Both the position numbers and the translations under genes were made by a program. A DNA stretch of 17,658 nt from a virus (Duplodnaviria; Heunggongvirae; Uroviricota; Caudoviricetes), in IMG/VR virus record IMGVR_UViG_2671180727_000013, positions 1 to 17,658 of that record, one strand, 5' to 3'. The notes below the pieces were generated by a model. That model made no database searches, was not told the origin of the DNA, and saw nothing but the letters and a program-made list of their open reading frames with translations. Numbering within the stretch: position 1 is the first letter of the stretch; every line of letters begins with the position of its first letter. Shown here in pieces: positions 101 to 17,658 of this stretch.

Positions 101-563
101 GTATGACCGTTTCTGCTTTGAACTCCGGTACACCAACGAACTCTTTAACCTTCATCTGGTAGCCGGTTCTGTCAGTTTTGATGACTTCCTGTTTGCCCTC
201 TATAAACTGCTCGCGCCACTCATCTCGACGGGAAGCTGGCATGATCAGCAAAACGTTAGTCATGTCCGTGACCTTCCTCCAGTACTCGGCCCAAATATTC
301 TGTTTCACCCATTCCAGATCGACTTTATCCAACCAACCTCGATTTAAACGCGAGCGATCTTCATCTGGTCGATGGTTTAGTCTCAGCAGGCGATTAATCA
401 TGTTGTGGCGTTCGTCGCCATAAACGAAGTCGTGAACCTGATACATGAAGGCGATCTCTTTCTCGCACTCGGCCACAATTTCGTGGATGACGTTCATTTC
501 CTGCCGATAGTCGATAGCAGTGTTTGAGTTGGCATCGTCGATGATGGAAAGGGCTGTATTCAT
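72..563 (-). CDS. hypothetical protein; last ~9 codons (LNRPGNPGD) are read from the IS terminus, so the native 3' end is probably disrupted or replaced
   Basis: 163-aa ORF; ATG at 563 with GGTG 6 nt upstream; IS boundary at 100/101 lies inside the reading frame. Confidence 0.5.
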   Translation of the reverse strand: MNTALSIIDDANSNTAIDYRQEMNVIHEIVAECEKEIAFMYQVHDFVYGDERHNMINRLLRLNHRPDEDRSRLNRGWLDKVDLEWVKQNIWAEYWRKVTDMTNVLLIMPASRRDEWREQFIEGKQEVIKTDRTGYQMKVKEFVGVPEFKAETVILNRPGNPGD

Positions 564-603
564 AATTGCACCATTAAGAAGTGATTTGTTTAATGGTGCA
601 ATT
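564..603. repeat. perfect 14-bp inverted repeat (AATTGCACCATTAA / TTAATGGTGCAATT) with 12-bp spacer, abutting the start codon at 563
   Basis: Read directly: 564..577 is the reverse complement of 590..603. On the minus-strand mRNA the 3' arm covers the GGTG ribosome-binding site. Confidence 0.7.
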
Positions 604-666
604 ATTTCAAAAATGAAAAGGTACTAAATAGAAATAAACAGGCAATCCTTCAAATAAAGGCATTGG

Positions 667-1281
667 CTAATCATACTTGGAGGTATTTATCACCAGAATT
701 TTGTTTGTATAAATCTTCTTAATATCCCATGTGACATTACCGGAATACCATTGACCGTTATATACTTGGTTTCCAGTTGCACCTGTCATTGTTACATAGA
801 CAGGTCTGTCGTAATCGGTTCGTCTATAGTTATATACTCCAACCATAGCAGGCATTACCGCACATGGATACCCCATATCTATTGTAAATTGAGGGTCAGA
901 AATAGTGATAAGTTTCGCATCAAGGGGCATCATCTCACCGTGATACACCATTGCGCCTGCGCTGTTATACATGGCAATGCCATAGCCAGAATGTGGTAAC
1001 ACCATATCAGAAAAAGCATAAACTGTTATTGTTCCGGGGCTACCATTTACCTGATGCAATCTGAGAGCATTGTATCCGTTACTATGCTCATGAATAAACA
1101 TCATGTTCGCCTTATTACTGCTTTTTATGAAAAAAAAACATGATTTGTTTGATGGGATTGATGTTTGAAAAACAGAACCTTTAGATGTAGACATTGTCCC
1201 TTTATTAATCAGATTTTGCGGAGTAAATTCTGGACTCATCCACAAACTTCCATCTGATTGAGTAATTGACATCCCGAACAT
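667..1281 (-). CDS. hypothetical protein, Tyr/Asn/Gly/Thr-rich, encoded in visibly AT-rich DNA
   Basis: ORF 667..1338 trimmed to the ATG at 1281 (MFGMSIT...), which sits 2 nt after the TAA of the upstream gene with TGGGGA as SD. Contains a T9 run (plus 1130..1138) encoding FFF. Confidence 0.5.
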   Translation of the reverse strand: MFGMSITQSDGSLWMSPEFTPQNLINKGTMSTSKGSVFQTSIPSNKSCFFFIKSSNKANMMFIHEHSNGYNALRLHQVNGSPGTITVYAFSDMVLPHSGYGIAMYNSAGAMVYHGEMMPLDAKLITISDPQFTIDMGYPCAVMPAMVGVYNYRRTDYDRPVYVTMTGATGNQVYNGQWYSGNVTWDIKKIYTNKILVINTSKYD

Positions 1282-1283
1282 AA

Positions 1284-1565
1284 TTATCCCCAGTATGTGT
1301 ATATGTAAGAACCAAGCCCCGTATATAAATTTGACCAACTAACCGTATTTCCATTAATAGTAACTGTTGGAACAGGTAAATTAATGTAGTTGTCGTTGTT
1401 AAGAGGCATCAATGACCACACGGCATGTAGCGATTTACCCGGTGGCGGATTGGAGTACGTCTTAGAGCCTGATGACGCAGTAAATCGATCAAGAAAAAAA
1501 ATAGGAGTAAGGAAGCCAGTAACGTTAATTCCTTTATTGTTGTAAATCCCTGTACCGTATGCCAT
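1284..1565 (-). CDS. hypothetical small protein (93 aa), Tyr/Asn/Gly/Thr-rich
   Basis: ATG at 1565 with AAGGA SD 6 nt upstream; TAA at 1284; contains a T8 run (plus 1494..1501). Confidence 0.5.
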   Translation of the reverse strand: MAYGTGIYNNKGINVTGFLTPIFFLDRFTASSGSKTYSNPPPGKSLHAVWSLMPLNNDNYINLPVPTVTINGNTVSWSNLYTGLGSYIYTYWG

Positions 1566-1592
1566 TTTTCATCCTTGTTTTTTATCAACACA

Positions 1593-1616
1593 ATATGGCC
1601 GATCATGCGGCCATAT
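1593..1616 (-). other. intergenic stem-loop (9-bp stem ATATGGCCG/CGGCCATAT, 6-nt loop) between the 189-aa and 93-aa genes
   Basis: Inverted repeat read directly; no clear U-tract after it on the minus strand, so a processing or attenuation role is as likely as termination. Confidence 0.3.
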
Positions 1617-1620
1617 CAGA

Positions 1621-2190
1621 TCAATTAGAGCTTTGAAAGGCTTTGTGTGGCTGTGTTGCGAGGTTATGTCGATGGCTTAACTCACGCATCATGTCTTCAA
1701 GCCGACTCTTTGTGTCGTCGAGTTGGTCGGCCATTGCTCCCAAAAGCTGACGAACGGCCATCGGATCATCGCTGTTTAGTGATGGCATTTTATAACCCGC
1801 CTGAGAAGACATAAGATTGAACGCAGACATCAACATCGTTAGAGAGGATTTAAGCCCAGCAATTTCACGATCTTTGCTGGCAATAATCGCCTCACTCTTG
1901 TTAGTGTCATCAGTTCGTTGAGTCTCGCTCACCATATCCAAAGTCGCCTGCAACTTATCAGCGCGCTCTTTTTCAGCAAGATAATGAACACCGAAATGAT
2001 GTGCTAAAGCTACAACCTGAGTTGGCTCTTCAAAGGTGGACTCAAAATTAAGTGCTGTAACCACTCTCTCAAATATGGAAACGTCTTCTATTCCTCGAAG
2101 AATGGCTAACATTTTGACCAGTTCATTAGCATCCATTTCTTCGAATAAGGCGTTTTGTTCATCAGCTATCGCTTTGCATTTCTTGCACAT
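1621..2190 (-). CDS. hypothetical protein (189 aa), begins MCKKCK
   Basis: ATG at 2190 preceded by the conserved leader AGGAAAAACAC and the upstream cassette; no family recognised. Confidence 0.55.
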   Translation of the reverse strand: MCKKCKAIADEQNALFEEMDANELVKMLAILRGIEDVSIFERVVTALNFESTFEEPTQVVALAHHFGVHYLAEKERADKLQATLDMVSETQRTDDTNKSEAIIASKDREIAGLKSSLTMLMSAFNLMSSQAGYKMPSLNSDDPMAVRQLLGAMADQLDDTKSRLEDMMRELSHRHNLATQPHKAFQSSN

Positions 2191-2204
2191 GTGTTTTTCC
2201 TAAT

Positions 2205-2227
2205 GCTTAAACAAGTTGTTTTCTTAT
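2205..2227 (-). promoter_or_regulatory. conserved upstream cassette, copy 1 (minus strand ATAAGAAAACAACTTGTTTAAGC), 14 nt upstream of the 2190 start
   Basis: One of three near-identical 23-nt elements with palindromic core AAACAAcTTGTTT, each followed by the leader AGGAAA(A/G)(A)CAC ATG. Confidence 0.5.
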
Positions 2228-2294
2228 TGGCTTTATTGTGATGTGGCATAAAAGGGGAGCAAGCTAAACGTAAAGGTGCAAACTCTCTATTTCG

Positions 2295-2327
2295 GTCAAC
2301 GAAACACAAGGGCCATTTGGCCCTTGT
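2295..2327 (-). terminator. putative intrinsic terminator after the 52-aa gene
   Basis: 9-bp stem ACAAGGGCC/GGCCCTTGT with 4-nt loop (2306..2327), followed on the minus strand by GTTTCGTTG. Confidence 0.45.
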
Positions 2328-2329
2328 CA

Positions 2330-2488
2330 TTAACACGTTGCTTTACGGACTAGCGGATAAGCGAAGTAGATCGCCAGACCAATGAGGACGCCATCAGAAA
2401 TGACAGACATCATCTTTCCCGTAAAATCCACCAACACCGCCATCACCAGAAGAGCAATGACGATCACAAGCCGGAATCTCTCAAGCAT
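2330..2488 (-). CDS. small hydrophobic protein (52 aa; MLERFRLVIVIALLVMAVLVDFTGKMMSVISDGVLIGLAIYFAYPLVRKATC), predicted membrane protein
   Basis: Not in the ORF track (below 60 aa). ATG overlaps the TerB-like stop as TAATG; two hydrophobic segments; terminator hairpin directly downstream. Confidence 0.45.
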   Translation of the reverse strand: MLERFRLVIVIALLVMAVLVDFTGKMMSVISDGVLIGLAIYFAYPLVRKATC

Positions 2489-2913
2489 TAGAGATAAGCA
2501 TCCAGTGACAACTGAAGCGCCTGGGCGATCTTTTTAAGTGCCTGCTCTTCTTGTTCACCAATGCCGTCCTGATCGGCAATATCAAGGCACAGACACAGTA
2601 CATCTACTGCATCATTAGTCCCGGCCACATCAGCCAGCTCACGTAAAGCCTGGGCATTAGCGCGGCGCGGTGAGGCTTCGTATTGAGCACGAATATTGGC
2701 GCTCATTTGGGCAATCTCACCAGCAAACGGAGAAAACGCAGGCAGAGCTGCAATTGTTTTCTCAAGAATGGAAATTTCCTTTGCGTCGCATGTGCCATCG
2801 GCATAGGAGATCATGTACGCGCCCCACACGGTGGCTTCAACCGCATCTCGGTTCTCCATTTTTTTGACCTCGATAACAGCTTTACGAGTTTTCTTTTTGA
2901 ATAAACCTAACAT
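2488..2913 (-). CDS. TerB-like protein (tellurite-resistance TerB fold)
   Basis: 141 aa; ADG...E and LCLCLDIADQDGIGEQEEQALKKIAQAL segments resemble the two TerB repeats; ATG preceded by the conserved leader AAAGGAAAGCAC. Confidence 0.5.
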   Translation of the reverse strand: MLGLFKKKTRKAVIEVKKMENRDAVEATVWGAYMISYADGTCDAKEISILEKTIAALPAFSPFAGEIAQMSANIRAQYEASPRRANAQALRELADVAGTNDAVDVLCLCLDIADQDGIGEQEEQALKKIAQALQLSLDAYL

Positions 2914-2933
2914 GTGCTTTCCTTTTGTTATTT

Positions 2934-2956
2934 GTTAAAACAAGTTGTTTTCTAGT
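2934..2956 (-). promoter_or_regulatory. conserved upstream cassette, copy 2 (minus strand ACTAGAAAACAACTTGTTTTAAC), 20 nt upstream of the 2913 start
   Basis: Same 23-nt element as at 2205..2227 and 13155..13177; perfect 7-nt palindrome arms AAAACAA/TTGTTTT. Confidence 0.5.
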
Positions 2957-2965
2957 TACATGAAT

Positions 2966-3008
2966 TGCTTACGAAAAGACGGTCAATGCATATGCACTAA
3001 CAACCGTC
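2966..3008 (-). terminator. putative terminator-like hairpin after the 62-aa membrane protein gene
   Basis: GACGGT / ACCGTC stem enclosing the palindrome TGCATATGCA, followed on the minus strand by TTTTCG; short stem and long loop, so weak. Confidence 0.35.
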
Positions 3009-3195
3009 AGAAATAACCAAGTACCGAACCAACTGGAAAAACAAAAATCCCAACAACACGAGCCAAGGTCATACCAGCCTGAAACTGGAGATCGCCAGAG
3101 CAAACAAGTTTTATAATGTTCGATACCCAACCGGCGGCCATGAGGGCAAGAATTGCCAGCCAAATTTTTCCAAAGTGATTTGAAAACCAGTTCAT
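3007..3195 (-). CDS. small membrane protein (62 aa, two hydrophobic segments)
   Basis: ATG overlaps the upstream TGA as ATGA (translational coupling); AAGGCGG SD; hydrophobic sequence WLAILALMAAGW ... VVGIFVFPVGSVLGYF. Confidence 0.5.
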   Translation of the reverse strand: MNWFSNHFGKIWLAILALMAAGWVSNIIKLVCSGDLQFQAGMTLARVVGIFVFPVGSVLGYF

Positions 3196-3410
3196 ACAAC
3201 CGCCTTAGTCACAGCATGATCCTGAGTAACTGGATGAACTTGAGGTATCGCATCCACCGTCATCCCATCCAGAGTGACAGGACGCTCTACTGGAGTGGTG
3301 GTAATTGTCGTCGACGGAGGTGTGGTGATGGATGAACCCGGCATCAAAAGGCTCTGGCCGGCTGGAACGGCTATCGTCGCCAGTGAAACTATAATGAGAA
3401 CGTAGGCCAT
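3192..3410 (-). CDS. small secreted Thr/Pro-rich protein with N-terminal signal peptide (72 aa from the ATG at 3410)
   Basis: MAYVLIIVSLATIAVPAGQS looks like a type I signal peptide with an AxA-like site; AGAGG SD upstream; no lipobox Cys. Confidence 0.45.
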   Translation of the reverse strand: MAYVLIIVSLATIAVPAGQSLLMPGSSITTPPSTTITTTPVERPVTLDGMTVDAIPQVHPVTQDHAVTKAVV

Positions 3411-3699
3411 TGGTTTCAGCCTCTTTCTTTGAAAATTTTCCATTCGAACTGTCCTTGTTGTTTTTCTCCTTCACTAAAGGCCGTGTACTTTTCGCTTCGC
3501 GTGAAGAACCAGAGGTAACAATCGCCCCCACGTTCGCAACAACTGACGCTTGCTTATCTAAACGTTCATTCAGCAACCGAACGGCAGTCTCTAGTTCATC
3601 AAGACGTGACAGAACACGACCGCTAAATAATTCGGCCAAAATTTGACGTAGTGAACGAGGACGTTTAGTTGCAGAAGTGAAATAGGTTTGACGTGCCAT
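3205..3699 (-). CDS. hypothetical protein; N-terminal ~90 aa credible, C-terminal low-complexity part overlaps 3192..3410 in another frame and may be spurious
   Basis: ATG at 3699 with GGAG SD 5 nt upstream; 3' end uncertain. Confidence 0.4.
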   Translation of the reverse strand: MARQTYFTSATKRPRSLRQILAELFSGRVLSRLDELETAVRLLNERLDKQASVVANVGAIVTSGSSREAKSTRPLVKEKNNKDSSNGKFSKKEAETNGLRSHYSFTGDDSRSSRPEPFDAGFIHHHTSVDDNYHHSSRASCHSGWDDGGCDTSSSSSYSGSCCD

Positions 3700-3714
3700 G
3701 TGGACTCCATCCAG

Positions 3715-3750
3715 TGTCAGAAAGAGTTGCGGCTGGCGATTGCCAGCCGC
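3715..3750 (-). terminator. putative terminator-like hairpin downstream of the RNase H gene
   Basis: 9-bp GC-rich stem GCGGCTGGC/GCCAGCCGC with 4-nt loop (3729..3750), followed on the minus strand by AACTCTTTCTG. Confidence 0.4.
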
Positions 3751-3844
3751 CTTTCTCGTTCCATCCTGGAACTGTGTCTTACCGACACATTGTCATCCTG
3801 ACGCCGATAAGATACATGATTTAAAATGATAGGTAAACACTTAC

Positions 3845-4438
3845 TTACTGTTTGTTGTAAACAAAACCAATATCTTTCTTGTGAGGCATATCTGCTGCGG
3901 AAAAAGCTGCGATCTTCGCGAGTCGATCACATATTTCATTTTCACGATGCCCGGCGTGACCTTTAACCCACTTCCAGCGAACATTATGTCGACTTGCAGC
4001 CTCATCCAGACGCTTCCACAGATCAACATTCTTTACCGGTTTTTTGTCAGAAGTCACCCATCCATTGCGTTTCCACCATTTCATCCACTGTGTCATGCCG
4101 TTTTTCAGATACTGGCTATCAGAGTGCAAAATAACGTTGCATGGATATTTCAAACGCTCCAGCCCGATAAGTGCCCCCATCATCTCCATGCGGTTATTGG
4201 TGGTGCTATGAAAACCATCTGAGAACTCGCGTTCCTCACCACGATACTGGAGAACTATACCGTAACCGCCCGGGCCACCCGGATTTTTAAGGCAAGAGCC
4301 ATCACTGAAGATTTTCACGGTTTTAAGCTGGGGATTGAACTCTACGACAGGCGTTGTGGAATTGGTGCGGGGAGAATTTTTGTTTTTGGCTTTTTTGCGA
4401 GTTTTTTCTTGCGATCGGGCTGGTGTCTTCGTCGTCAT
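3845..4438 (-). CDS. rnhA: ribonuclease HI-like protein with a ~40-aa basic N-terminal extension
   Basis: [57 protein letters not shown] match E. coli RNase HI motifs. Start set at the ATG at 4438 (MTTKTP) because AGGAG lies 5 nt upstream; the track's longer ORF start has no SD. Confidence 0.85.
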
Positions 4439-4439
4439 A

Positions 4440-5021
4440 TAAACTCCTGAATCAAGCGCCGCGCCGATTTTTTCCTCGCGCGTGCGCACACGCGTGCGTG
4501 TTAATAATTATTAAAATAAACAAATTACTTCCCAGAACAGGTTTTTATAAACCTGAACTGAACGAACGAAGTGAGTGAAGTTCACCTCGAACGAAGTGAG
4601 AGGTTGTCTTTTCAGGTAATACTCTCCCAGGGAGGTGAGTATAAAAATCCCTCACCAACCTGGTCGTTTCATAACCTGAAAAGTTATGGCCTAAGTCTAC
4701 TGCCAGCTTAGACTTGGGAAGTTATGGATGACAGCACCCCAGAACCGAGATCTTCCCACACTTTATGAAGGGGAGTACTGGATTCAACCTCTCTAAACAC
4801 CCCAGACTCGACAATCATAAAGTGACCCTTGTCTCCGCTCACTTTGGTTCCCCCTTCCCCGACACCTAAACGGCACCGGTTCTACGCTGGTAGTGAGCTT
4901 TTTTAAACCTGACGCCAGTGACGCTTACCCCCACCCATCAGGTCGAGTCTCCAGTCTACGACTGGAAACTATCAGATCTTAGCACTTACAATTCACTTTA
5001 TGAATAGTTTGTACTTATCTA
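4440..5021 (-). other. ORF-poor, repeat-rich structured intergenic region (candidate ncRNA, regulatory hub or origin)
   Basis: No ORF of 60 aa or more on either strand; 12-nt direct repeat GAACGAAGTGAG at 4564..4575 and 4589..4600; several hairpins and long-range inverted repeats (details in findings). Confidence 0.4.
4477..4500. repeat. 24-nt perfectly alternating pyrimidine-purine GC-rich tract (Z-DNA-prone), with embedded palindromes
   Basis: CGCGCGTGCGCACACGCGTGCGTG read directly; includes CGCGTG-CGCA-CACGCG hairpin; followed by 14-bp AT palindrome TTAATAATTATTAA at 4501..4514. Confidence 0.6.
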
Positions 5022-5252
5022 TCATTGTGATTGATTATTTTCTCTACCATGTAGTTGAACATTCAAGGCAAACACCTCATTGATCAACTCACCTAAAAGC
5101 TGTTCAACAAGTTCGCGATGCTCGCCAAGATGCAAGCACTTAATTGCCCATTCGTACAAGTTGAAAGCCTGCTCACGATCTTTCATCATTTCACGAGCCT
5201 GGGCCAGAAAATCGCTCTCTACGAGCGCAACGACATTAGTCGGGTATGACAT
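5022..5252 (-). CDS. hypothetical small protein (76 aa from the ATG at 5252)
   Basis: Track ORF 5022..5276 trimmed to the internal ATG that has AAGGA 7 nt upstream; the first ATG lacks an SD. Confidence 0.45.
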   Translation of the reverse strand: MSYPTNVVALVESDFLAQAREMMKDREQAFNLYEWAIKCLHLGEHRELVEQLLGELINEVFALNVQLHGRENNQSQ

Positions 5253-5340
5253 GTTGGTTTCCTTAAAGTGGTTCATAAAATCGATTTTAAAGCGTCTGGG
5301 AAGGGGTTCTAGTGGATTCTGTAGTGATGTTCAGGTCTGG

Positions 5341-5416
5341 AGTCTCTGATACAAAACAGCCTGCTTCCGTATATTAATAATTAATATGTAGTTATTTATA
5401 TATACAGAAGCAGGCT
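5341..5416 (-). terminator. terminator-like long hairpin after the methyltransferase gene
   Basis: Arms 5358..5374 and 5400..5416 pair over 17 positions with one mismatch; 25-nt AT-rich loop containing ATTAATAATTAAT; minus-strand tail GTTTTGTAT. Confidence 0.35.
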
Positions 5417-5437
5417 AATTACAGACGCCAGAACAAA

Positions 5438-6031
5438 CTAAGCAGCCTTCTTTGATGGTCTTTTTTTCCTGATCACATTCGCAGGATCATACCCTCCCAG
5501 ACTTTTCATGACGTCCAAAGGGATCTTGCTTATAGAGTGCCCAGCGTCCTGACAAAATCCTCGAAAAACAACGAGCATACTGCCACCTGGGTTGATGTTT
5601 ACTTCTACCTGACCCAGATTGACGTCAGGCTCGACAAACGCTACGCGGCCACCAGACAGAATAATCGTCTCATTCGCACACTCTGTTGCACGCTCATACC
5701 ACTTTGTATCTAGGGATTGAGGAATTAGCATCACTGTTGTAACTCCGCGAGCCTGCTCACGTATAGCCGCATCAATCCAGGGGGAGATTTTGGAGTAGGG
5801 TGGATTGAGGAAGGCAATTGTACCTGGCTGTCCCCATTCAGATTTCAAAGCATCACGCTCAACGCCTATGAAATTAGGCAGCTTTGCATTGTCCTTGTTG
5901 CAGGCAACGTCAACATCAAATGTCACTCCAAGATAACGTTGAATGGCAGAAAACAGCCAGTCAGGTGTTCTCCAGAGGTCACGAAGAGAGTTGTCGCGCT
6001 TTCGCTGTTTGATTTTTTCGGCTGCAATCAT
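5438..6031 (-). CDS. phage Dam-family DNA N6-adenine methyltransferase
   Basis: N-terminal WRTPDWLF...FDVDVAC and catalytic NPPYS (motif IV) in the order typical of the phage Dam family (PF05869-like); 197 aa; no adjacent restriction-endonuclease gene seen. Confidence 0.75.
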   Translation of the reverse strand: MIAAEKIKQRKRDNSLRDLWRTPDWLFSAIQRYLGVTFDVDVACNKDNAKLPNFIGVERDALKSEWGQPGTIAFLNPPYSKISPWIDAAIREQARGVTTVMLIPQSLDTKWYERATECANETIILSGGRVAFVEPDVNLGQVEVNINPGGSMLVVFRGFCQDAGHSISKIPLDVMKSLGGYDPANVIRKKRPSKKAA

Positions 6032-6090
6032 CTTCTTTCTCGATAGGTAAGTAAATACCTATTTTTGCATTTGATTTTATGTCTGGCAAT

Positions 6091-6139
6091 CAAATAAAAC
6101 GCGCCAGAAATGCAAACGAGAAGCTCTCTGGCGCGTTTT
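6091..6139 (-). terminator. intrinsic terminator after the acidic-protein gene
   Basis: Stem AAAACGCGCCAGA / TCTGGCGCGTTTT (6097..6139), flanked by A/T runs so it has a U-tail in both orientations; minus-strand tail GTTTTATTTG. Confidence 0.6.
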
Positions 6140-6143
6140 TGTG

Positions 6144-6174
6144 GTGCTGGGTATGTGATTGGCTTACCCAGCAC
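6144..6174. other. second tandem hairpin (10-bp perfect stem GTGCTGGGTA/TACCCAGCAC, 11-nt loop)
   Basis: Read directly; no U-tract, function unknown. Confidence 0.4.
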
Positions 6175-6214
6175 TATAAAGCTCTCTATGGGCTTTATTT
6201 TCAGTAGGGGAACG

Positions 6215-7024
6215 TCATCCAATAGTGTACTCCGCGACAAACTTCTTAACGATCGGTGATTCTTCGTTCAATGTTAGATTTCCACCGCCTCTAACGGCAA
6301 TTCCTGTCGCTGGAAATACAGCCATCATTTGCCCAGCCTGAGTTGACGCAGTGTTAAGCGGATACGGTTTTTCTGGATTGCTCATTAAAGCAATCTTAAT
6401 ACTATTACTTGTAGCCTTCTTTTCTGTGAGAAGGTGTCTCATGGAAATTACCGTGTAAACACTAATATCTGGACCTCCGCTAAACCAATTAAGAAGGTTT
6501 AATATCTTATCCTTTGCTTTGACAGGCGCGTTATCGTAAGCGTCTAAGAAAATATCTTTTTCTAAGCCCGCTTTATTGAAAAACGAATCATCTTTATCAC
6601 TTAAAGTAAAACGAGGACCTCTTGCAGTACGAGCTTTTTTATTTGTATTGCTATCATTTGACTGTTGAACTTTTAATTCATCATTAACCTCAACACACTC
6701 TTCAACCTCAATAAATCCCAATTGTTCTGGCTCGTTTTCGGCAGCTTCAACACTTTCAGCGTTAATTACGTTTATAGGCTCATGCGCTAACTCCAACTCA
6801 TTTAAAGCAGAGCTGAAATCACCTGCTTTTTCTTCATTGAACAGTTCTTCGGCAACATCATCAGAACTCATGGCTACGCCAGCATCTAGGCCGAGCAGCA
6901 GATCGTCAATATCATCAGTATTTTCAACCTGTGCAGCTTTTTTTACTGGTTCATCAAGTGATTGCAACATGGCTGTCAGCTCGTCCAGATCATCATTTGT
7001 CATTACATTTTCAACCGAACTCAT
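6215..7024 (-). CDS. hypothetical protein with strongly acidic N-terminal half (Asp/Glu-rich)
   Basis: 269 aa; AGGAG SD 8 nt upstream of the ATG; N-terminal ~120 aa dominated by D/E; no catalytic motif recognised. Confidence 0.55.
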   Translation of the reverse strand: MSSVENVMTNDDLDELTAMLQSLDEPVKKAAQVENTDDIDDLLLGLDAGVAMSSDDVAEELFNEEKAGDFSSALNELELAHEPINVINAESVEAAENEPEQLGFIEVEECVEVNDELKVQQSNDSNTNKKARTARGPRFTLSDKDDSFFNKAGLEKDIFLDAYDNAPVKAKDKILNLLNWFSGGPDISVYTVISMRHLLTEKKATSNSIKIALMSNPEKPYPLNTASTQAGQMMAVFPATGIAVRGGGNLTLNEESPIVKKFVAEYTIG

Positions 7025-7133
7025 GTAAGTCTCCTTCTGTTTGGTTACATTTGCGTTTCGATGGCTACATTTTGACTAAACCTATCAGGCGGAAAAGTAT
7101 TAAATACAGGCAGGAAATGATTGAAAGGCGACT

Positions 7134-7178
7134 GTTCTTTAAAAGAAAGCCTACTTTAAACTTTTTAAAGTAGGCTTT
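7134..7178 (-). terminator. intrinsic terminator immediately after the exonuclease gene
   Basis: ~15-bp stem (7146..7160 with 7164..7178) and 3-nt loop; T-runs on both sides (minus tail TCTTTTAAAG, plus tail TTTTGTTTT). Confidence 0.6.
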
Positions 7179-7182
7179 TGTT

Positions 7183-7740
7183 TTACACAATTTCAGAGGG
7201 TAATTTAAAAAATCCGTACTTATTACGTGCCTTAAAGAAGCATTGCATCATTAAGTTTGTGTCATATAAGGCACTATGTGCTTTGGCATGATCGTATATA
7301 AAGCCAAGAGAGAAGGCCAACTCTTCAAGGCGGGGACGTTTACCGTCTTCTGTGGCCCACAATCCCGATAACATAGTATCTATAACAGGAACTTCTGGCA
7401 GTCTTACTCCATACCCTGAAAACTCGTGTCGAATAAATGGTATATCAAATGCTTCGCCGTTATGAGCAACCCACACACTACATGCCCCCATATAAGCGCC
7501 AATTTCGCTGGCATGATTTGACAACAAAGGTTCAGCTGCGAGCTGTTCCAATGAAATGCCATGAACGGCTTGAGCTTTCGGATCTATGTTTCTGCGAGGG
7601 TTAAAACGCATCTCCAGACTATCAATATGTCTCTGTGTCTCCAGTTCATAGCGGGTAATTGCGATTTCAATAATTTTATGACCAGCAAGGAAATCCAGTC
7701 CCGTAGACTCGATATCGATGCCTGCAACAATCGTTGTCAT
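7183..7740 (-). CDS. DnaQ-like DEDDh 3'-5' exonuclease
   Basis: Exo I GIDIESTGL, Exo II HNGEAFDIPF, Exo III HSALYDT; AAGGAG SD; 185 aa. Confidence 0.8.
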   Translation of the reverse strand: MTTIVAGIDIESTGLDFLAGHKIIEIAITRYELETQRHIDSLEMRFNPRRNIDPKAQAVHGISLEQLAAEPLLSNHASEIGAYMGACSVWVAHNGEAFDIPFIRHEFSGYGVRLPEVPVIDTMLSGLWATEDGKRPRLEELAFSLGFIYDHAKAHSALYDTNLMMQCFFKARNKYGFFKLPSEIV

Positions 7741-7749
7741 CAGAACTCC

Positions 7750-8169
7750 TTACAACTTCTTAGCGCCCTTAAGTAGTGCGCTACGTACAAATTGAGCCGC
7801 TTTTTTCAAAGTTTCTTCACTGGTTTCACAGACAATCGGATCTTTCCACTTACCTGACACAGTGTTGAGAATATTGATTTGGTTGCTATCCAGACAAACA
7901 GAGATATAAAGCACCGTGCCACCAGCCAGCATCAAATGCATAGGAAACAGAGGCTTTTTACTGCCTTCACTGAACTGAGACATGGCGATGTTAATGGCTT
8001 CACCCACTTGTGTACCAACAAGCCCCTGCGCAGTTTCGAATATGGCACGAATAGCCAGACGAGCCTCTCGATCGCTCATAAGCGACCGGGAATGTTCGTC
8101 CGCTACACGAATCAAAGCCTCTGTTGTTTTCCGATCCAGTTCATCTTCAAGCAACATTTCACTAAACAT
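7750..8169 (-). CDS. hypothetical protein (139 aa)
   Basis: ATG with AAGGA SD 7 nt upstream; its stop overlaps the RBS of the exonuclease gene; no family recognised. Confidence 0.5.
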   Translation of the reverse strand: MFSEMLLEDELDRKTTEALIRVADEHSRSLMSDREARLAIRAIFETAQGLVGTQVGEAINIAMSQFSEGSKKPLFPMHLMLAGGTVLYISVCLDSNQINILNTVSGKWKDPIVCETSEETLKKAAQFVRSALLKGAKKL

Positions 8170-8230
8170 TTTTTATCCTTAACCCATTTTGAGAGTTTTA
8201 TTGTCGCAATGTCGAAGAGGCGAACAATTT

Positions 8231-8875
8231 CTAATGAACGGTCACTCGGCCACAGAACCGGTTTTCTATCTTTTCTACAGCGTTATCTAGCATTCTCATC
8301 ACTGATCTGGCTCTTGCTTCAACCGTGCGATATCGGTTGGAAACGACGAAGGTTTGCAGATCTCCCCTTTGCGGATGCAGGTGAATTTTTGTCAGTTCCC
8401 CGCACATCAACGCATCAATACGAGCGACATACAGACGGTCTAATGATGCTCGTTGTGACCGCAAGTAATCTCGCTCTGAGAGAGCGACCCCCGGGCGTAG
8501 GCCAGCAATGGCGTTAAAGTTTGAAATAGCAGTTTTGTGGCAAAACTTTTCGATATCGAGGGCTAACTCAATACACCGATCTTCATTTGTATGGCCGACC
8601 AAATCCAACGTGTAGGCCATAACATCAGCAGGTGTGCGATCGATAACAAAGCCTTCAACACCACGCGTAAGTAGCTCTATATGCTTTGCTATTTCCATTT
8701 GAATCTGAAGCCGCTCATATAGAGGCATAGAATCACCTACTCGAACACCGAGGCGGCTCATCAAACTTCCGACACCAGCATCCACGTAAGGGATTCCGTA
8801 ATGTTTGTCGATATATTTAGCCAGGGTTGTTTTCCCACTGCCCTGAGCACCAGTGATCCCAATCCGGTAATCCAT
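8231..8875 (-). CDS. P-loop nucleotide/nucleoside kinase-like protein
   Basis: Walker A GITGAQGSGKTT near the N-terminus (dephospho-CoA kinase / uridine kinase style); start overlaps the DHFR stop as TAATG; substrate not assignable. Confidence 0.5.
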   Translation of the reverse strand: MDYRIGITGAQGSGKTTLAKYIDKHYGIPYVDAGVGSLMSRLGVRVGDSMPLYERLQIQMEIAKHIELLTRGVEGFVIDRTPADVMAYTLDLVGHTNEDRCIELALDIEKFCHKTAISNFNAIAGLRPGVALSERDYLRSQRASLDRLYVARIDALMCGELTKIHLHPQRGDLQTFVVSNRYRTVEARARSVMRMLDNAVEKIENRFCGRVTVH

Positions 8876-9351
8876 TACGACCTTCTGTATACGATCTGCG
8901 AAAAGCCAGGCTCTTCCTCGCTGGCTCGTTGGGTATAAGCTGTTTCAACAGGCACAAAGCCTAAATTACGCATCATGCTTGCCGGGAAGAATGCATCGGC
9001 GTTTGGCACATCAACGCCGATGTGGGAGAGCCAAATCTCTTCAACATGCGGCATGAATAGCGAGTAAATTTGTTCCCCGCCAATCACCCACACAGGCTCT
9101 GGTAATCGCAACACATCATCCACACCAGCAGGGTAGAATCCATTTGGTACAAAGCCATGAGAGCGCGTCAAAACGAGGTTATGACGCTCTGGAAGAGGGC
9201 GTTTGAGACTTTCCATCGTTTTACGCCCCATAACGACAGTGGCGTTTTTGGTGAGTCTCTTAAATAGCTTCAGATCGGTAGAACAACGCCAGGGGAGTTC
9301 ATTCGCTATGCCGATCTCATAGTTACGGCCAACAGCAGCGATCATCTTCAT
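8875..9351 (-). CDS. folA: dihydrofolate reductase
   Basis: MKMIAAVGRNYEIGIANELPW...VVMGRKTMESL...RPLPERHNLVLTR...VWVIGGEQIY aligns with E. coli FolA motifs; 158 aa; ATGA overlap with upstream gene. Confidence 0.85.
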   Translation of the reverse strand: MKMIAAVGRNYEIGIANELPWRCSTDLKLFKRLTKNATVVMGRKTMESLKRPLPERHNLVLTRSHGFVPNGFYPAGVDDVLRLPEPVWVIGGEQIYSLFMPHVEEIWLSHIGVDVPNADAFFPASMMRNLGFVPVETAYTQRASEEEPGFSQIVYRRS

Positions 9352-9761
9352 TTGCTCACCTCATAGATGACCGGTCGATGGTGAGAGTCGGCTAAAGCGG
9401 CACGGAGTCGAGGATCGTGCACCAGCGCAGCGATAAGCAGATCGCCTTTATGCTCCGCTAATGTGCGCTTAATATGCTTCTCATAACTGGTGCCATTCGG
9501 TACGAGATGAAGCCAGTCATAATCAACGCCAAAATCTTTCAGCCATCGTTTAGTTGGCGCTTCAAGAGTTTCAGAGCGGCTACTGATAAGCACCACTTCA
9601 GCCCCTGAGCGAGCAAAACCACGCAACATACGGCTGGTGGGGAAAATGAGTTCATCACCGGCAATGAGCTGGCCTGCATCCGCGTCAGATACTGATTTAC
9701 GATGGCTGGCATTTGCCAGCACACCTTCAATTTCGCATAAGACATACATACCTCTTGCCAT
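9348..9761 (-). CDS. hypothetical protein, possibly HAD-like fold with Glu in place of the motif I Asp residues
   Basis: Start set at the ATG at 9761 (MARGMYVLCEIEGVL), 1 nt after the thymidylate synthase stop; hhhExEGvL then VVLISSRSE then K...GD pattern is reminiscent of HAD motifs I-IV. Weak. Confidence 0.3.
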   Translation of the reverse strand: MARGMYVLCEIEGVLANASHRKSVSDADAGQLIAGDELIFPTSRMLRGFARSGAEVVLISSRSETLEAPTKRWLKDFGVDYDWLHLVPNGTSYEKHIKRTLAEHKGDLLIAALVHDPRLRAALADSHHRPVIYEVSK

Positions 9762-9762
9762 A

Positions 9763-10866
9763 TCACACCGCCACTGGAACCTTGATCCACGATAGAGGGT
9801 CATAGCCAAGAATTAAAACCTCGTCCCATTTGAAATCATCCAACTCTGACCATTCATGAGGGAAAATAACGACCGGATCTGAATGCTCTGGAGCCTGTCG
9901 TTTCATTAGCTCACACACACCTTCCATGTGGTTGTTGTACAAATGCACGTCAAAGCCAAAATGCACAAATGCACCGGCCATGTGACCCGTAATCTTCGCG
10001 AGAAAATGAGTGAGAATGCCATAGCCAGCAATATTGAATGGCATACCAACAAAAGTGTCTACGCTACGCTGTACGAGGCAGGAGTTGAGGATGCGTTTGG
10101 GGATTCCAAGTTCATCCAGTTCAGCTTCAGTAACACTGCCGTCCATCTCCAGATCGTATAGCATCTTGGTGTAGATAGACTCGTAACCGAGGCGACTGTG
10201 TTGAAGACCAATGTCAGTTGCCATCGTTAAACGGGTTTCAAAATCCAGCTCACGACTCCACAAAGAGAAGACAAAGTGGCAAGGTGGCAGTTTCATATCC
10301 TCAAGCTCGCCTACGTTCCATGCGTTAAGCATGATGCGACGATCGGTAGGGTTCGTGCGCAGTGTATCGACAATACGCTGTAGCTGATCGATTTCACGGG
10401 ACAGCACTACGCGATCTTCACTGATACCCAGGTATCCCTCGACTTTGTACCCGCGTTCACGGAAAGTAGCGATCTTGCTCAGATATTCACTATGGCTCAC
10501 GATGCGGGTATCTTCCCATCGACGCCACTGCTTACCGTAAACCGGCCCCAAATCGCCATTCTCATCGGCCCATGCATCCCAAATCTTAACGCCGTTATCC
10601 TTGAGAAATTGGATGTTGCCCGTGCCTTTCAGATACCACTCAAGTTCGACAAGCAGTGGCTTAAGATTTACCGCCTTTCCAGAAATAAGCGGCACAGTCC
10701 CACCAGTAAGCATGTAGTAAGAGGGAACGTAGCAGGTGCTTAAAGTACCAGTGCCTGTGCGATCATCAGCCTGCACGCCGCTTTTAAGCACCGTCTCAAT
10801 AACTTTTGCATACGATGCGTTTGTTACCTGACCGTTCGTATGCTCACGATTCAAAAGGAGTGACAC
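9763..10866 (-). CDS. thyA: thymidylate synthase (ThyA-type) carrying two large insertions
   Basis: DRTGTGTLS, IWDAWADENGDLGPVYGKQWRRW, DRRIMLNAWN, LPPCH, QRSVDTFVGMPFNIAGY (Asn retained, so dUMP-specific), HLYNNHM. Start ambiguous: GTG at 10866 has GAGG 5 nt upstream; the track's GTG at 10893 has no SD. Confidence 0.85.
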   Translation of the reverse strand: MSLLLNREHTNGQVTNASYAKVIETVLKSGVQADDRTGTGTLSTCYVPSYYMLTGGTVPLISGKAVNLKPLLVELEWYLKGTGNIQFLKDNGVKIWDAWADENGDLGPVYGKQWRRWEDTRIVSHSEYLSKIATFRERGYKVEGYLGISEDRVVLSREIDQLQRIVDTLRTNPTDRRIMLNAWNVGELEDMKLPPCHFVFSLWSRELDFETRLTMATDIGLQHSRLGYESIYTKMLYDLEMDGSVTEAELDELGIPKRILNSCLVQRSVDTFVGMPFNIAGYGILTHFLAKITGHMAGAFVHFGFDVHLYNNHMEGVCELMKRQAPEHSDPVVIFPHEWSELDDFKWDEVLILGYDPLSWIKVPVAV

Positions 10867-10940
10867 AAAAACCTCACAAAGATAAGTAACCACTTATTCA
10901 TTGCGTGAGTTTACATTTATTGAGAGAACAAGACCAGACA

Positions 10941-10969
10941 GATAAAAAAATGGTGGCCATAGGCCACCA
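10941..10969 (-). terminator. intrinsic terminator after the 289-aa gene
   Basis: 8-bp stem TGGTGGCC/GGCCACCA with 3-nt loop, followed on the minus strand by TTTTTTTATC. Confidence 0.7.
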
Positions 10970-11037
10970 AAAACGAATAGTTGTTTCAGAAATTTAACGC
11001 GCCAACGCAATATACACAGATAGATAACTACCTACAA

Positions 11038-11907
11038 TTATTTTTTGATCATTCCGTACATTGCTGAGGCTTTAGCTTGCTCAACAAAGGAGGATAAATC
11101 GACATCACTATAGGTTGGAGACTTCAGAATCTTTCCATCGGAAATTCGAAAACCGATCATCTTATCGGTGCCATCAGCATGGCGGAATCCCAGGTCTGAA
11201 GAGTCGTATTTGCAGTTGGCCACAGCCTGGCGACGTTCCTCAACATCAGCAGGCCATAATTTTGTCATGTTAGACCGATGAATTTCGCCAACCAGCTCGA
11301 CTACATTGATACCGAGGAAATCAGCCAGTCGATAGGTCATCATGCACGCCACATAGATTTTGTTCATGACACGGCGCAGTTCCTGAATCAGCTCAGAATC
11401 CTTAACAGTCTTGTTCTCAAGTTTATCTGCCAGCTCTTCGAGCATACATGACGCCTCACGAGCTTCCTGAAATGGCATTGCCATATCATCGAAAACAGTG
11501 TTACCGGGCACAAAAATTGTCTGCATAAAGCGATCAATGCTCTGTTCCTGCGTGTAATAGGTCATGCCGGTAGAAATACCACCTTTGATGGCGACCATCG
11601 TACCAACACCAACGTATAAAAAGTCGGCCATTGCATCCAGCAGTTGCTCAATATCCCCATTCATTGCGGCTGGAATACCTTCCACTACAGCTTCTTCATG
11701 AATCAGGCTTGCACGGAGACGAAGCAGCTCTGGTGTCGGCATAACGCGTCTCGGATGCTGGAAGAGTTCATGAAACTGATCGACCATCTTGTAAATACTT
11801 TCAGTAGCTACACCATGACCTTCATGCAACTCATATGGTTCTGGCTTAAATCCAATGAGTCGATCGGTGGCAAGTTTCAGGTGGTCAGTCAGTTTGGTAA
11901 AGTTCAT
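11038..11907 (-). CDS. putative all-alpha NTP pyrophosphohydrolase (MazG / dimeric dUTPase-like), tentative
   Basis: 289 aa; two EE-x-x-E ... D-x-x-x-D/E acidic helix patterns (LIHEEAVVEG...DIEQLLDAMADFLYV; EAREASCMLEELADKLE). Assignment by motif impression only. Confidence 0.35.
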   Translation of the reverse strand: MNFTKLTDHLKLATDRLIGFKPEPYELHEGHGVATESIYKMVDQFHELFQHPRRVMPTPELLRLRASLIHEEAVVEGIPAAMNGDIEQLLDAMADFLYVGVGTMVAIKGGISTGMTYYTQEQSIDRFMQTIFVPGNTVFDDMAMPFQEAREASCMLEELADKLENKTVKDSELIQELRRVMNKIYVACMMTYRLADFLGINVVELVGEIHRSNMTKLWPADVEERRQAVANCKYDSSDLGFRHADGTDKMIGFRISDGKILKSPTYSDVDLSSFVEQAKASAMYGMIKK

Positions 11908-11942
11908 GCTAGTTTTGTTCCTTCTTAATTCTTGTGATCCAT

Positions 11943-11967
11943 TGTGGCCCAGCGTTGCCAGGCCACA
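11943..11967 (-). other. stem-loop in the nrdB to downstream-gene spacer (7-bp stem TGTGGCC/GGCCACA, 11-nt loop)
   Basis: Read directly; no U-tract, so probably not a terminator. Confidence 0.3.
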
Positions 11968-11984
11968 TAATGCTTTGTATCGGT

Positions 11985-13127: not shown

Positions 13128-13154
13128 GTGTTTTTCCTTTTTCTTTTTTGGTGC

Positions 13155-13177
13155 GTTTAAACAAGTTGTTATCTTAT
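13155..13177 (-). promoter_or_regulatory. conserved upstream cassette, copy 3 (minus strand ATAAGATAACAACTTGTTTAAAC), 27 nt upstream of the nrdB start, plus a partial extra TTGTTTAAAC copy at 13180..13189
   Basis: Third copy of the 23-nt element; lies between the nrdA terminator and the nrdB RBS, followed by the leader AAGGAAAAACAC ATG. Confidence 0.5.
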
Positions 13178-13195
13178 GTGTTTAAACAAGGCTTA

Positions 13196-13228
13196 CAAAT
13201 CAAAGAGAAGGTGGGGATATCCCCCACC
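13196..13228 (-). terminator. intrinsic terminator immediately after nrdA
   Basis: GC-rich hairpin GGTGGGG-ATATC-CCCACC (13210..13228) followed on the minus strand by TTCTCTTTGATTTG. Confidence 0.6.
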
Positions 13229-13233
13229 ATATG

Positions 13234-15549: not shown

Positions 15550-15552
15550 GTA

Positions 15553-15588
15553 TCACCAAATAAAGAGGGCCACTATATTTAGTGGCCC
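15553..15588 (-). terminator. intrinsic terminator between the RuvC-like gene and nrdA
   Basis: 9-bp stem GGGCCACTA/TAGTGGCCC with 4-nt loop (15567..15588), followed on the minus strand by TCTTTATTTGG. Confidence 0.6.
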
Positions 15589-15613
15589 ATGTTAATAGAT
15601 AAGCACTTACCTA

Positions 15614-16192: not shown

Positions 16193-16201
16193 ATAGTCTC
16201 C

Positions 16202-16934: not shown

Positions 16935-16945
<11 letters not shown>
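16202..16945 (-). CDS. hypothetical protein (247 aa), translationally coupled between the ATPase lobe and the RuvC-like gene
   Basis: ATG at 16945 lies 11 nt inside the upstream ORF; no motif of a known nuclease or phosphoesterase family recognised. Confidence 0.5.

Positions 16946-17658
<713 letters not shown>

Follow-up and report, generated by a model that had tools for sequence, protein, structure and literature searches.

The three repeats in this stretch of viral DNA are copies of a 13-base palindrome, AAACAA-N-TTGTTT, which recurs some 20 times ahead of genes in SSU5/pHCM2/pMT1-type phage-plasmids of enteric bacteria and most likely serves as the docking site of one putative regulator that switches many phage genes together. 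The window, by which we mean the whole 17,658-nt stretch analysed, comes from an SSU5-like phage-plasmid of E. coli and shares 98.6% identity with phage Cyrano/pLF82. The original prediction placed the repeats as 23-mers on the minus strand at 2205-2227, 2934-2956 and 13155-13177, all of which proved exact, and interpreted them as an element-specific promoter or operator. Part of that interpretation holds: the element is specific to the mobile element, recurs in the replicon and its relatives, marks independent units and is built like a binding site for a (dimeric) regulator. Its denial of a host promoter and its proposal of a phage polymerase or sigma factor do not. We estimate at about 55% the probability that the palindrome is a DNA operator, occupying roughly +8 to +20 in weak host-type promoters and bound by a putative dimeric regulator encoded by the element.

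All three window copies contain the exact 12-mer AACAACTTGTTT (2209-2220, 2938-2949 and 13159-13170), far exceeding the ~0.002 expected by our own arithmetic for three exact 12-mers in 17.7 kb. Copy 1 has the core AAACAACTTGTTT (minus strand, 2209-2221) within the extended site AGAAAACAACTTGTTTA (minus strand, 2208-2224), scores 34.5 bits against the weight matrix and is kept in Cyrano, SSU5 and Klebsiella pJN2-26. Copy 2 has the same core (minus strand, 2938-2950; 26.6 bits; extended site AGAAAACAACTTGTTTT, minus strand, 2937-2953) and is kept in Cyrano and pJN2-26, while copy 3, with the core TAACAACTTGTTT (minus strand, 13159-13171; 30.0 bits; extended site AGATAACAACTTGTTTA, minus strand, 13158-13174), differs by one mismatch at the outermost base and is kept in four relatives. 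A minus-strand ATG lies downstream of each copy, as originally described, and the genes named there agree with Pfam results: a 189-aa minus-strand ORF (1621-2190) without a match in Pfam after copy 1, a TerB/TciA-like ORF (2488-2913; TerB domain, E=1.2e-7) after copy 2 and nrdB (11985-13127; RNR small chain, E=4.5e-46) after copy 3, which sits between nrdA and nrdB. Immediately 5' of copy 3, an alignment of relatives revealed a conserved block, CTTGTTTAAACACATAAGA (minus strand, 13172-13190), that may be a promoter core or a second half-site; TTAAACAC precedes this copy and also those of terS and cobT.

A weight matrix applied to the Cyrano and SSU5 genomes showed that these belong to a larger set, with 18-21 copies of AAACAA-N-TTGTTT per genome in Cyrano and SSU5 compared to a chance level of ~1. 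At a threshold of at least 20 bits, there were 18 and 21 distinct sites in the two genomes, and shuffled controls gave 0-2 sites even at a laxer 12-bit cut. Cyrano carries 14 exact copies and 7 with one mismatch, and 50 kb of SSU5 contain 10 occurrences of AACAANTTGTT, versus 0.08 in shuffles. Copies are almost all intergenic and 5' of genes, at 12-60 nt from the start codon; forward copies are sense-oriented within leaders, with 12-41 nt between them and the start codon, and roughly one-fifth of copies are inverted and located 5' of the -10. The motif was found in 82 of the 87 loci examined; relatives carrying it come from Klebsiella, Enterobacter, Salmonella and Yersinia pestis (pMT1), including a Y. 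pestis contig that carries an FljA-like gene and is presumably pMT1 itself. It is absent from an Acinetobacter relative, and the very divergent relative L104 has lost the palindrome and kept an upstream stretch, ..CATCAAnAAGAAA. Motif cassettes in Cyrano 85-99 kb are clearly paralogous. In unrelated contexts (terS, parA, helicase, cobT and nrdB), the palindrome is kept while the flanks differ, and orthologous copies are conserved far above their surroundings, which together argue for selection on the palindrome itself. We found no description of the motif string in the searchable literature, nor any link there between SSU5/pHCM2 and an operator or FljA function.

Host-type promoter hexamers precede many of these copies. 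The original prediction held that no sigma70 pair fits, which is contradicted by copy 1, where TTGCTC (minus strand, 2257-2262) stands 16 nt 5' of CACAAT (minus strand, 2235-2240), followed by 14 nt to AACAA. Judged from sequence, TTGCTC is a putative -35, and TTGCCC occupies the same place in SSU5 and pJN2-26; the -10-like hexamer reads CACAAT, CACAAT and CAGAAT in three diverged relatives, the full pairs being TTGCCC/CACAAT in SSU5 and TTGCCC/CAGAAT in Klebsiella phage pJN2-26. Overall, a -10-like hexamer ends 13-15 nt 5' of 15/28 forward gene-proximal copies (~1.2 expected), and 11 forward copies have an extended TGn. Window copies 2 and 3 lack a convincing -10 at the standard distance, as do the terS, helicase and parA copies, and in copy 2 the -10 varies in position between relatives, which leaves the promoter assignment uncertain. 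Footprints across relatives revealed that the palindrome and ~20 nt 5' of it are kept even where the leader after them has diverged or grown by 25 nt; at nrdB, the distance from palindrome to ATG varies (31, 33 and 58 nt) and the upstream block is fixed. Together with the spacing to the -10, this links the motif to the promoter and not to the start codon. At three promoters, forward copy and inverted upstream copy are separated by exactly 51 bp (93115/93166, 88320/88371 and 93663/93714), an arrangement kept between Cyrano and SSU5, and the late operon (terS) has two copies 25 bp apart.

Promoter-proximal copies occur in a single orientation with an AGA flank conserved as strongly as the core, neither of which a purely symmetric operator requires. 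That L104 retains its upstream stretch after losing the palindrome suggests the flank to be part of the promoter. The element had also been proposed as a promoter for a phage polymerase or sigma factor, a candidate that we discarded: neither gene is listed in the annotated records of Cyrano and SSU5, and both lack a homologue of the sigma factor encoded by Acinetobacter plasmid pABTJ2. Given the host-type hexamers, and since no such gene was found, an operator sited just downstream of the transcription start is a better reading of the palindrome than a promoter in its own right.

Terminator-like hairpins precede all three window copies rather than the two originally counted, although one is weak. 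The first ends the upstream TciA/TciB unit (minus strand, 2306-2327; 9 pairs, 6 of them GC, with a T-rich tail), the weak one lies 5' of copy 2 (minus strand, 2982-3001) and contains a TTGACC that could be the -35 for that copy, and the third follows nrdA (minus strand, 13210-13228) and is invariant across four relatives. The element marks independent expression units after terminators, as proposed. A conserved leader, AGGAAA(A/G)(A)CACATG, had been described as well and is present at all three genes, but it is not specific to the palindrome. Its forms in the window are AGGAAAAACACATG at the 189-aa ORF (minus strand, 2188-2201; Shine-Dalgarno (SD) and start context) and at nrdB (minus strand, 13125-13138), and AGGAAAGCACATG at the TerB-like ORF (minus strand, 2911-2923). 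The leader occurs in 7/123 Cyrano genes (12/123 end in CACATG), and contexts of this type without the palindrome are found at the Cyrano genes for SSB, SbcD, mem56, hyp59 and PolIII-alpha. It is a separate, genome-wide ribosome-binding context, and we rejected it as part of the element.

The palindrome is symmetric as DNA and unstructured as RNA. Information content in the weight matrix is mirror-symmetric over 13 bases with a free centre, and the motif RNA forms no stable hairpin (-0.7 kcal/mol). Folding z-scores ranged from -0.4 to +1.2 in 11 of 12 leaders, with terS, which has a leader hairpin, at -1.3; a search against Rfam gave no match better than E=0.47, and one-mismatch variants showed neither compensatory changes nor covariation. 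We rejected an RNA hairpin or known RNA family on the folding energy, the z-scores near zero and the lack of an Rfam match.

On the operator reading, AAACAA-N-TTGTTT would act as double-stranded DNA in ~15-20 promoter-operator units of SSU5-like phage-plasmids. Each unit would usually follow a terminator and comprise a weak host sigma70-type promoter, with a poor -35 of the TTTKNC type and often an extended -10 such as TGnGATAAT, then a conserved, putatively initially transcribed stretch (..ACACCAAcAAGAA) and the palindrome centred at ~+14. From that position a bound regulator with two-fold symmetry would block initiation or promoter escape. In some units, a second, inverted copy with its centre at ~-37 would cover the -35 region, 51 bp away from the first copy. 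A single element-encoded regulator, most simply a repressor in the plasmid state, would in this way control replication, nucleotide metabolism (nrdB), partition (parA), small early genes and the late operon.

The strongest competitor, which we nonetheless consider unlikely, is that the motif is an mRNA-leader operator for the FljA-family protein of the element (CYRAN_114 in Cyrano, SSU5_121 in SSU5). An FljA-type protein bound to AGAAAACAA-N-UUGUUUA just 5' of the SD would block translation of, and/or destabilise, ~15 mRNAs. CYRAN_114, which has an orthologue in SSU5, matches Pfam Flag1_repress (PF03614; E=1e-80), and its fold was assessed as tandem Sm/Hfq-like, compatible with RNA binding. 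The gene is expressed in the lysogen and more highly in macrophages, where Cyrano production is blocked. Salmonella FljA works in this manner, through an operator in fliC mRNA (PMC4122451). The fliC leader reads ..AACATCAAGTTGTAATTGATAAGGAAAAGATC-ATG and the FljA-insensitive fljB leader, ..TTTACATCAGATAAGGAAG.., lacks exactly AGTTGTAATT, according to published primers (PMC3410353, PMC5056187); the segment distinguishing the two contains CAAGTTGT, the core of our motif, at a similar distance from the SD. This likeness is only 8 nt long with different flanks, however, and we estimate the probability of its arising by chance at ~0.004-0.02. Of the 831 plasmids found to carry the FljA-family gene, 341 come from Klebsiella and 62 from Y. 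pestis. These hosts are non-flagellated or non-motile, so a target other than flagellin is needed. Like the motif, the gene is absent from Acinetobacter relatives, but its co-occurrence with the motif is equally true of several other clade-specific genes.

An RNA target would also explain why every forward copy is sense-oriented in a leader, yet the perfect mirror symmetry, without stable hairpin or covariation, is unneeded by a single-strand binder, and the conserved inverted copies 5' of the -10 would fall outside the sense transcript. Distances to the start codon are variable, up to 58-66 nt, and the motif is unchanged where the FljA-family protein is only 34% identical. The leader of the FljA-like gene is itself without a copy, which led us to reject autoregulation. 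Covariation between motif and regulator was uninformative within the main clade, the motif being identical across FljA-like proteins of 34-100% identity. The fuller scenario, in which the FljA-family protein silences ~15 lytic-cycle mRNAs post-transcriptionally in the plasmid state and Salmonella FljA with its fliC operator is a domesticated copy, strikes us as doubtful.

A positively controlled or element-specific promoter, as originally predicted, is more improbable still. The palindrome, especially the copy at -37, would here be the site of an activator or host-polymerase modifier for middle or late transcription, where a good -35 is missing. The -35 hexamers are indeed poor, the region from -35 to +20 is conserved as a single block, and activators commonly bind palindromes that overlap the -35 region; the terS copy is followed by a leader hairpin with a T run, resembling late promoters governed by antitermination. 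Most copies, though, lie 3' of the -10, where activators rarely act, and we found neither a phage polymerase or sigma factor nor a recognisable activator. Nor do extended -10 promoters need a -35. We give very little credence to binding by a host factor common to Enterobacterales, or to a palindrome with no partner that persists in mobile promoter cassettes spread by recombination. Confinement of the motif to elements of enteric hosts, with an Acinetobacter relative lacking it, would fit a host factor, and the paralogous cassettes at Cyrano 85-99 kb suit duplication. Against these stand the conservation of the palindrome in unrelated flanks and of orthologous copies above their surroundings, and no E. 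coli regulator site, those of NrdR, IHF, KdgR, PurR and LexA included, is known to match it. NrdR boxes are tandem 16-bp sites of the acaCwAtATaTwGtgt type 5' of nrd genes, whereas the motif differs in sequence from that consensus, is single at nrdB and precedes many non-nrd genes. The 434-type site ACAA-N6-TTGT does not fit either.

Several known systems resemble the proposed operator. The P1 C1 repressor acts at operators dispersed over a plasmid prophage, each an asymmetric 17-mer (ATTGCTCTAATAAATTT). As here, one short operator recurs at many scattered promoters, in both orientations and sometimes paired, placing many units under one regulator; the sequences are unrelated, and the SSU5-type core, placed mostly at +8 to +20, has true palindromic symmetry over 13 bp. 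The system may work like the dispersed-operator regulon of P1 C1, but we do not claim membership of that family, as the annotations of Cyrano and SSU5 list no C1-like protein. The lac O1 operator at +11, with its auxiliary operators, is likewise a palindrome centred just after +1, and the second site 51 bp upstream would lie on roughly the same helical face, a spacing compatible with cooperative binding or looping. The SSU5-type half-sites are, however, very compact (C and G 6 bp apart) and serve ~20 targets rather than one, and no LacI-family protein was found.

T4 RegA, a phage translational repressor that acts at short A/U-rich sites in many early mRNA leaders, is an analogue only if the motif works at the RNA level; its sites overlap the start codon and are non-palindromic, its fold differs, and no homologue is annotated in Cyrano or SSU5. 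T4-type PeSLs are mobile cassettes of a promoter and a stem-loop, and the repeated terminators and early promoters flanking many small ORFs in the plastic region at Cyrano 85-99 kb are similar, but PeSLs have no operator palindrome and the palindrome here is also found outside the cassette region. Salmonella FljA/fliC (PMC4122451) has a homologous protein (PF03614), and the two systems have in common the 8 nt CAAGUUGU of the core and a ribosome-binding context resembling AAGGAAAA; the fliC operator lies between promoter and SD, where the forward copies may lie as well. It differs in that FljA has one known target where the phage-plasmid would have ~15, a 5-bp hairpin (AUCAA/UUGAU) can form in the fliC operator but not in the phage-plasmid motif, fliC has no counterpart of the inverted upstream copies, and the proteins are only ~40% identical.

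SSU5-like phage-plasmids are very common in clinical Enterobacterales, and relatives of two SSU5-type proteins are found on 800-1000 PLSDB plasmids, including the pHCM2 type of S. Typhi and pMT1 of Y. pestis. We found no account in the searchable literature of how their plasmid/phage switch is controlled. A 13-bp motif marking ~20 transcription units offers a handle on that switch: it defines a regulon, predicts transcript starts and provides both a bait for the regulator and a target for derepressing the element or locking it. Should the FljA-family link be true, it would explain the conservation of a 'flagellin repressor' gene in non-flagellated hosts and the origin of the Salmonella phase-variation repressor.

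Among conserved DNA-binding proteins with expression in the lysogen, none is a good fit for the regulator. CYRAN_45, the putative repressor of the literature, and the S24 peptidase CYRAN_98 were rejected as binders since SSU5 has the motif but neither of these proteins. CYRAN_37, 113 and 123 are silent in the lysogen. CYRAN_117 is expressed there and appears ribbon-helix-helix-like by eye from its sequence, but its putative DNA-contacting strand differs in a plasmid with an unchanged motif; a motif-like sequence at its start is probably due to chance, since none is found in SSU5 at up to one mismatch. Those candidates that Cyrano and SSU5 have in common are small proteins without a known function. 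Published expression data show the motif genes checked (CYRAN_1, 70, 85, 87, 105 and 106) at 7-13 in the Cyrano lysogen, near background (median, 9.8), and a 39-fold induction of Cyrano by ciprofloxacin (PMC9928086). Two motif-bearing genes, parA (50) and the helicase gene (21), are nevertheless above background in the lysogen.

The window aligned to the annotated record of the Escherichia coli LF82 phage-plasmid pLF82 (Cyrano; OV696614) with 98.6% identity over positions 101-17537, and to the Salmonella phage SSU5 and Klebsiella relatives with 77% identity; at least 80% of it was present on 169 PLSDB plasmids. Its genes are encoded on the minus strand and, by alignment to the Cyrano record, comprise DUF4942, small ORFs, TciB/TciA-like, RNase H, Dam, exonuclease, DHFR, Pnk, ThyX, MazG, NrdB, NrdA, RuvC-like and SbcC genes. 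Both ends (1-100 and 17537-17658) lie outside the phage-plasmid sequence, and the high end matches IS100/IS21-family sequence (istB) at 100% identity, so the segment is bounded there by an insertion sequence in the source replicon.

Three 23-nt elements containing the palindrome AAACAA-N-TTGTTT had been described upstream of minus-strand genes, and both their positions (2205-2227, 2934-2956 and 13155-13177) and their sequences agreed exactly, as did the downstream start codons and AGGAAA..CACATG leaders. The genes that follow encode a 189-aa ORF with no Pfam match, a TerB-domain protein and the ribonucleotide reductase small subunit. Terminators had been noted before two copies; terminator-like hairpins precede all three.

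The original prediction had proposed a search for further copies in the replicon and in related genomes, which we carried out on the complete Cyrano genome of 108,379 bp and on SSU5 over its first 100 kb. Allowing up to one mismatch to AACAANTTGTT, Cyrano contains 21 sites, nearly all intergenic and 18-80 nt upstream of an annotated start, preceding terS (two copies), parA, the replicative helicase gene, cobT, CYRAN_58, nrdB, tciA, CYRAN_87 and a series of small genes at 85-99 kb. The distribution in SSU5 is similar, with 10 exact matches in 50 kb versus 0.08 expected. A weight matrix built on 38 oriented sites gave the consensus A-G-A-A-[AAACAA-N-TTGTTT]-A, in which information is mirror-symmetric over the central 13 bases, with a free centre and a conserved 5' AGA flank. 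At a cut-off of 20 bits it identified 18 distinct sites in Cyrano and 21 in SSU5, compared to 0-2 in shuffled genomes even at 12 bits; across the whole window, no site scored beyond the three reported copies. The exact 13-mer occurs, usually in several copies, at 82 of 87 loci examined (including 80 IMG/VR contigs of this phage-plasmid group), as well as in a 108-kb Yersinia pestis contig, presumably pMT1, and in a related element within an E. coli chromosome. No enrichment was found in pABTJ2, an Acinetobacter plasmid with 60% identity in the large terminase. SSU5 relatives from Acinetobacter have neither the palindrome nor a FljA-like gene and appear to use a different control logic; they carry a sigma70-family sigma factor between cobS-like and dnaE genes (pABTJ2, L090:18154-18819).

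Aligned contexts revealed a recurrent unit, best kept before the small genes at Cyrano 85-99 kb, which consists, in order, of a terminator, a weak T-rich -35 (TTTTAC, TTTGAC, TTGGAC and the like), GCCTT(T/A), 10 nt, (TGn)GATAAT, aACACCAAcAAGAA, AACAANTTGTTT, and a Shine-Dalgarno sequence with ATG. A -10-like hexamer (A2, T6 and at least four of the six bases as in TATAAT, with its end 13-15 nt before AACAA) was present at 15 of 28 forward copies, versus about 1.2 from the background rate, and 11 had an extended TGn. The claim that no -35/-10 pair fits does not hold for copy 1, where a promoter-like pair can be read from the sequence (minus strand: TTGCTC at 2257-2262, 16 nt, CACAAT at 2235-2240, 14 nt, motif) and is kept as TTGCCC/CACAAT in SSU5 and TTGCCC/CAGAAT in the Klebsiella phage pJN2-26, placing this copy in the -10-associated class. 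At copies 2 and 3 no convincing -10 was found; TTAAACAC is instead common to copy 3 and the copies at terS and cobT. Were transcription to start about 7 nt past the -10, the palindrome would lie at about +8 to +20, and the second, inverted copies found exactly 51 bp upstream at three promoters, conserved between Cyrano and SSU5, would be centred near -37. Such a layout is reminiscent of lac-type operators, which lie at +11 and are accompanied by an auxiliary site. In the 80 IMG/VR loci taken together, the asymmetric 15-mer AGAAAACAANTTGTT occurs 191 times on the early-gene strand versus 55 on the other.

The mirror symmetry, the upstream copies in inverted orientation and the fixed spacing to the promoter would all be expected of a DNA-binding regulator with two-fold symmetry, and we consider a DNA operator the leading reading, with a probability of roughly 55%. 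The palindrome keeps a constant distance from the -10 or the upstream block, and its distance to the ATG in nrdB orthologues is 31, 33 or 58 nt because the downstream leader diverges and gains 25 nt. RNA structure is disfavoured by a folding energy of only -0.7 kcal/mol for the palindrome alone, z-scores of -1.3 to +1.2 for twelve leaders, no Rfam match and one-mismatch variants in Cyrano and SSU5 that are never compensated in the opposite arm. In a very divergent syntenic relative (Logan contig ERR4229134_16765, 7600-9960), both the -10 and the initially transcribed stretch ..CATCAAnAAGAAA.. are retained before small genes; ..GAATAAcatcaatAAGAAAACAA.. is kept but the palindrome is not, its right arm being lost, suggesting that the AGA flank is part of the promoter or of the initially transcribed region and not of the operator. 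This relative has a FljA-like gene, whose protein is only remotely similar. In LF82 expression data, the motif genes checked read 7-13 compared to a median of 9.8, and Cyrano is induced 39-fold by ciprofloxacin (PMC9928086). These values fit repression in the plasmid state, yet nearly all lytic genes are silent there, and in the same data parA (50) and the helicase gene (21) are above background.

Ranked second, and only tentatively, is an RNA operator for the element's own FljA-family protein, CYRAN_114 (Cyrano record 100780-101301, L004:783-1301, minus strand; SSU5_121 in SSU5). This 'transcriptional regulator' is a full-length Pfam Flag1_repress member (E=1e-80) with a predicted fold of two tandem Sm/Hfq-like domains and no helix-turn-helix; no paper in the searchable literature describes such domains for FljA. 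The family has 33 representatives among 1.84 billion proteins, all from this phage-plasmid group or true FljA. FljA-like genes occur on 831 plasmids; 341 of these come from Klebsiella and 62 from Y. pestis, hosts that are non-flagellated or non-motile, so the protein must act on something other than flagellin. Published primers (PMC3410353, PMC5056187) give the Salmonella leaders as AGCCCAATAACATCAAGTTGTAATTGATAAGGAAAAGATC-ATG for fliC, which is FljA-sensitive, and ..CCTTTACATCAGATAAGGAAGAATTTTAGTC-(G/ATG) for the insensitive fljB; an extra 10-nt AGTTGTAATT in fliC creates CAAGTTGT, the motif core with N=G and the same 8 bases as the phage-plasmid palindrome core. However, this match is short, the palindrome is symmetric, inverted copies fall outside the sense transcript and the distance to the ribosome-binding site varies; moreover, the motif is unchanged where the FljA-like protein is only 34% identical, and the gene's own leader has no copy. 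For CYRAN_114, LF82 RNA-seq (PMC9928086 S1 Table) gives about log2 4 in overnight LB and an increase to about log2 8 within macrophages, where Cyrano virion production is reportedly blocked. An activator-dependent or element-specific promoter is more doubtful still, being conceivable for the -37 copies, since most copies lie downstream of the -10 and there is no candidate factor. That a host factor binds the palindrome, or that it spread passively along with duplicated cassettes, is unlikely, given that it persists where the flanks are unrelated and is prominent in orthologous alignments. About ten small ORFs each carry a near-identical terminator/promoter/palindrome cassette (Cyrano 85.8-98.5 kb, L003:35800-48500; SSU5 82-95 kb), some with palindromes paired 51 bp apart, resembling the mobile early-promoter cassettes of T4-type phages.

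We favour a phage operator regulon with a putative regulator, leaving a minority chance of something more unusual. Functionally, P1 comes closest: it too is a prophage maintained as a plasmid, and the operators of its C1 repressor, all of one type, are dispersed over many promoters, although the operator sequence is unrelated and neither Cyrano nor SSU5 has an annotated C1 homologue. The searchable literature mentions neither this motif nor any SSU5-type element regulator. Regulator-like genes common to Cyrano and SSU5 are CYRAN_37, 113, 114, 117 and Cra, and probably CYRAN_123, which has SSU5_130 at its syntenic position and is 78% identical in a divergent Klebsiella plasmid. The published candidate repressor CYRAN_45 and the S24 peptidase CYRAN_98 were rejected, as neither is in SSU5; CYRAN_43, which is highly expressed, is missing from SSU5 too. 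By eye, CYRAN_37, 113 and 123 resemble small winged-helix proteins; none has a family annotation, and all three are silent in the lysogen. CYRAN_117, expressed at 12 times background, looks ribbon-helix-helix-like from its sequence; its counterpart in the divergent Klebsiella plasmid shares 33% identity with it and has a different putative DNA-reading strand, while 10 exact motif copies lie in 40 kb of that plasmid. The lysogen expresses both CYRAN_117 and CYRAN_98 strongly (PMC9928086 S1 Table).

A reading of the leader as part of the element did not hold up. Near-identical AAAGGAAAAACACATG contexts lie at window positions 2188-2201, 2911-2923 and 13125-13138 (minus strand), and 7-12 of the 123 genes in Cyrano have contexts of this type. 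Several of these genes, including those for SSB, SbcD and PolIII-alpha, have no palindrome. The start context, shared with at least four other Cyrano genes, is thus independent of the palindrome; it could simply reflect a preference for a strong ribosome-binding site, or be a second control element that these genes share. In the terS leader (Cyrano record 40-135, L002), two motif copies 25 bp apart are followed, before the ribosome-binding site, by a conserved GC-rich hairpin and T run, an arrangement also seen in SSU5 and two other loci (L088, L095). This leader terminator suggests that the 28-kb late operon is controlled by attenuation or antitermination. Finally, three annotated Cyrano starts look wrong: that of CYRAN_58 (record 58633) is ATT, and those of CYRAN_105 (95805) and CYRAN_110 (97903) fall inside or upstream of the palindrome, with a downstream ATG and Shine-Dalgarno sequence matching the cassette pattern.
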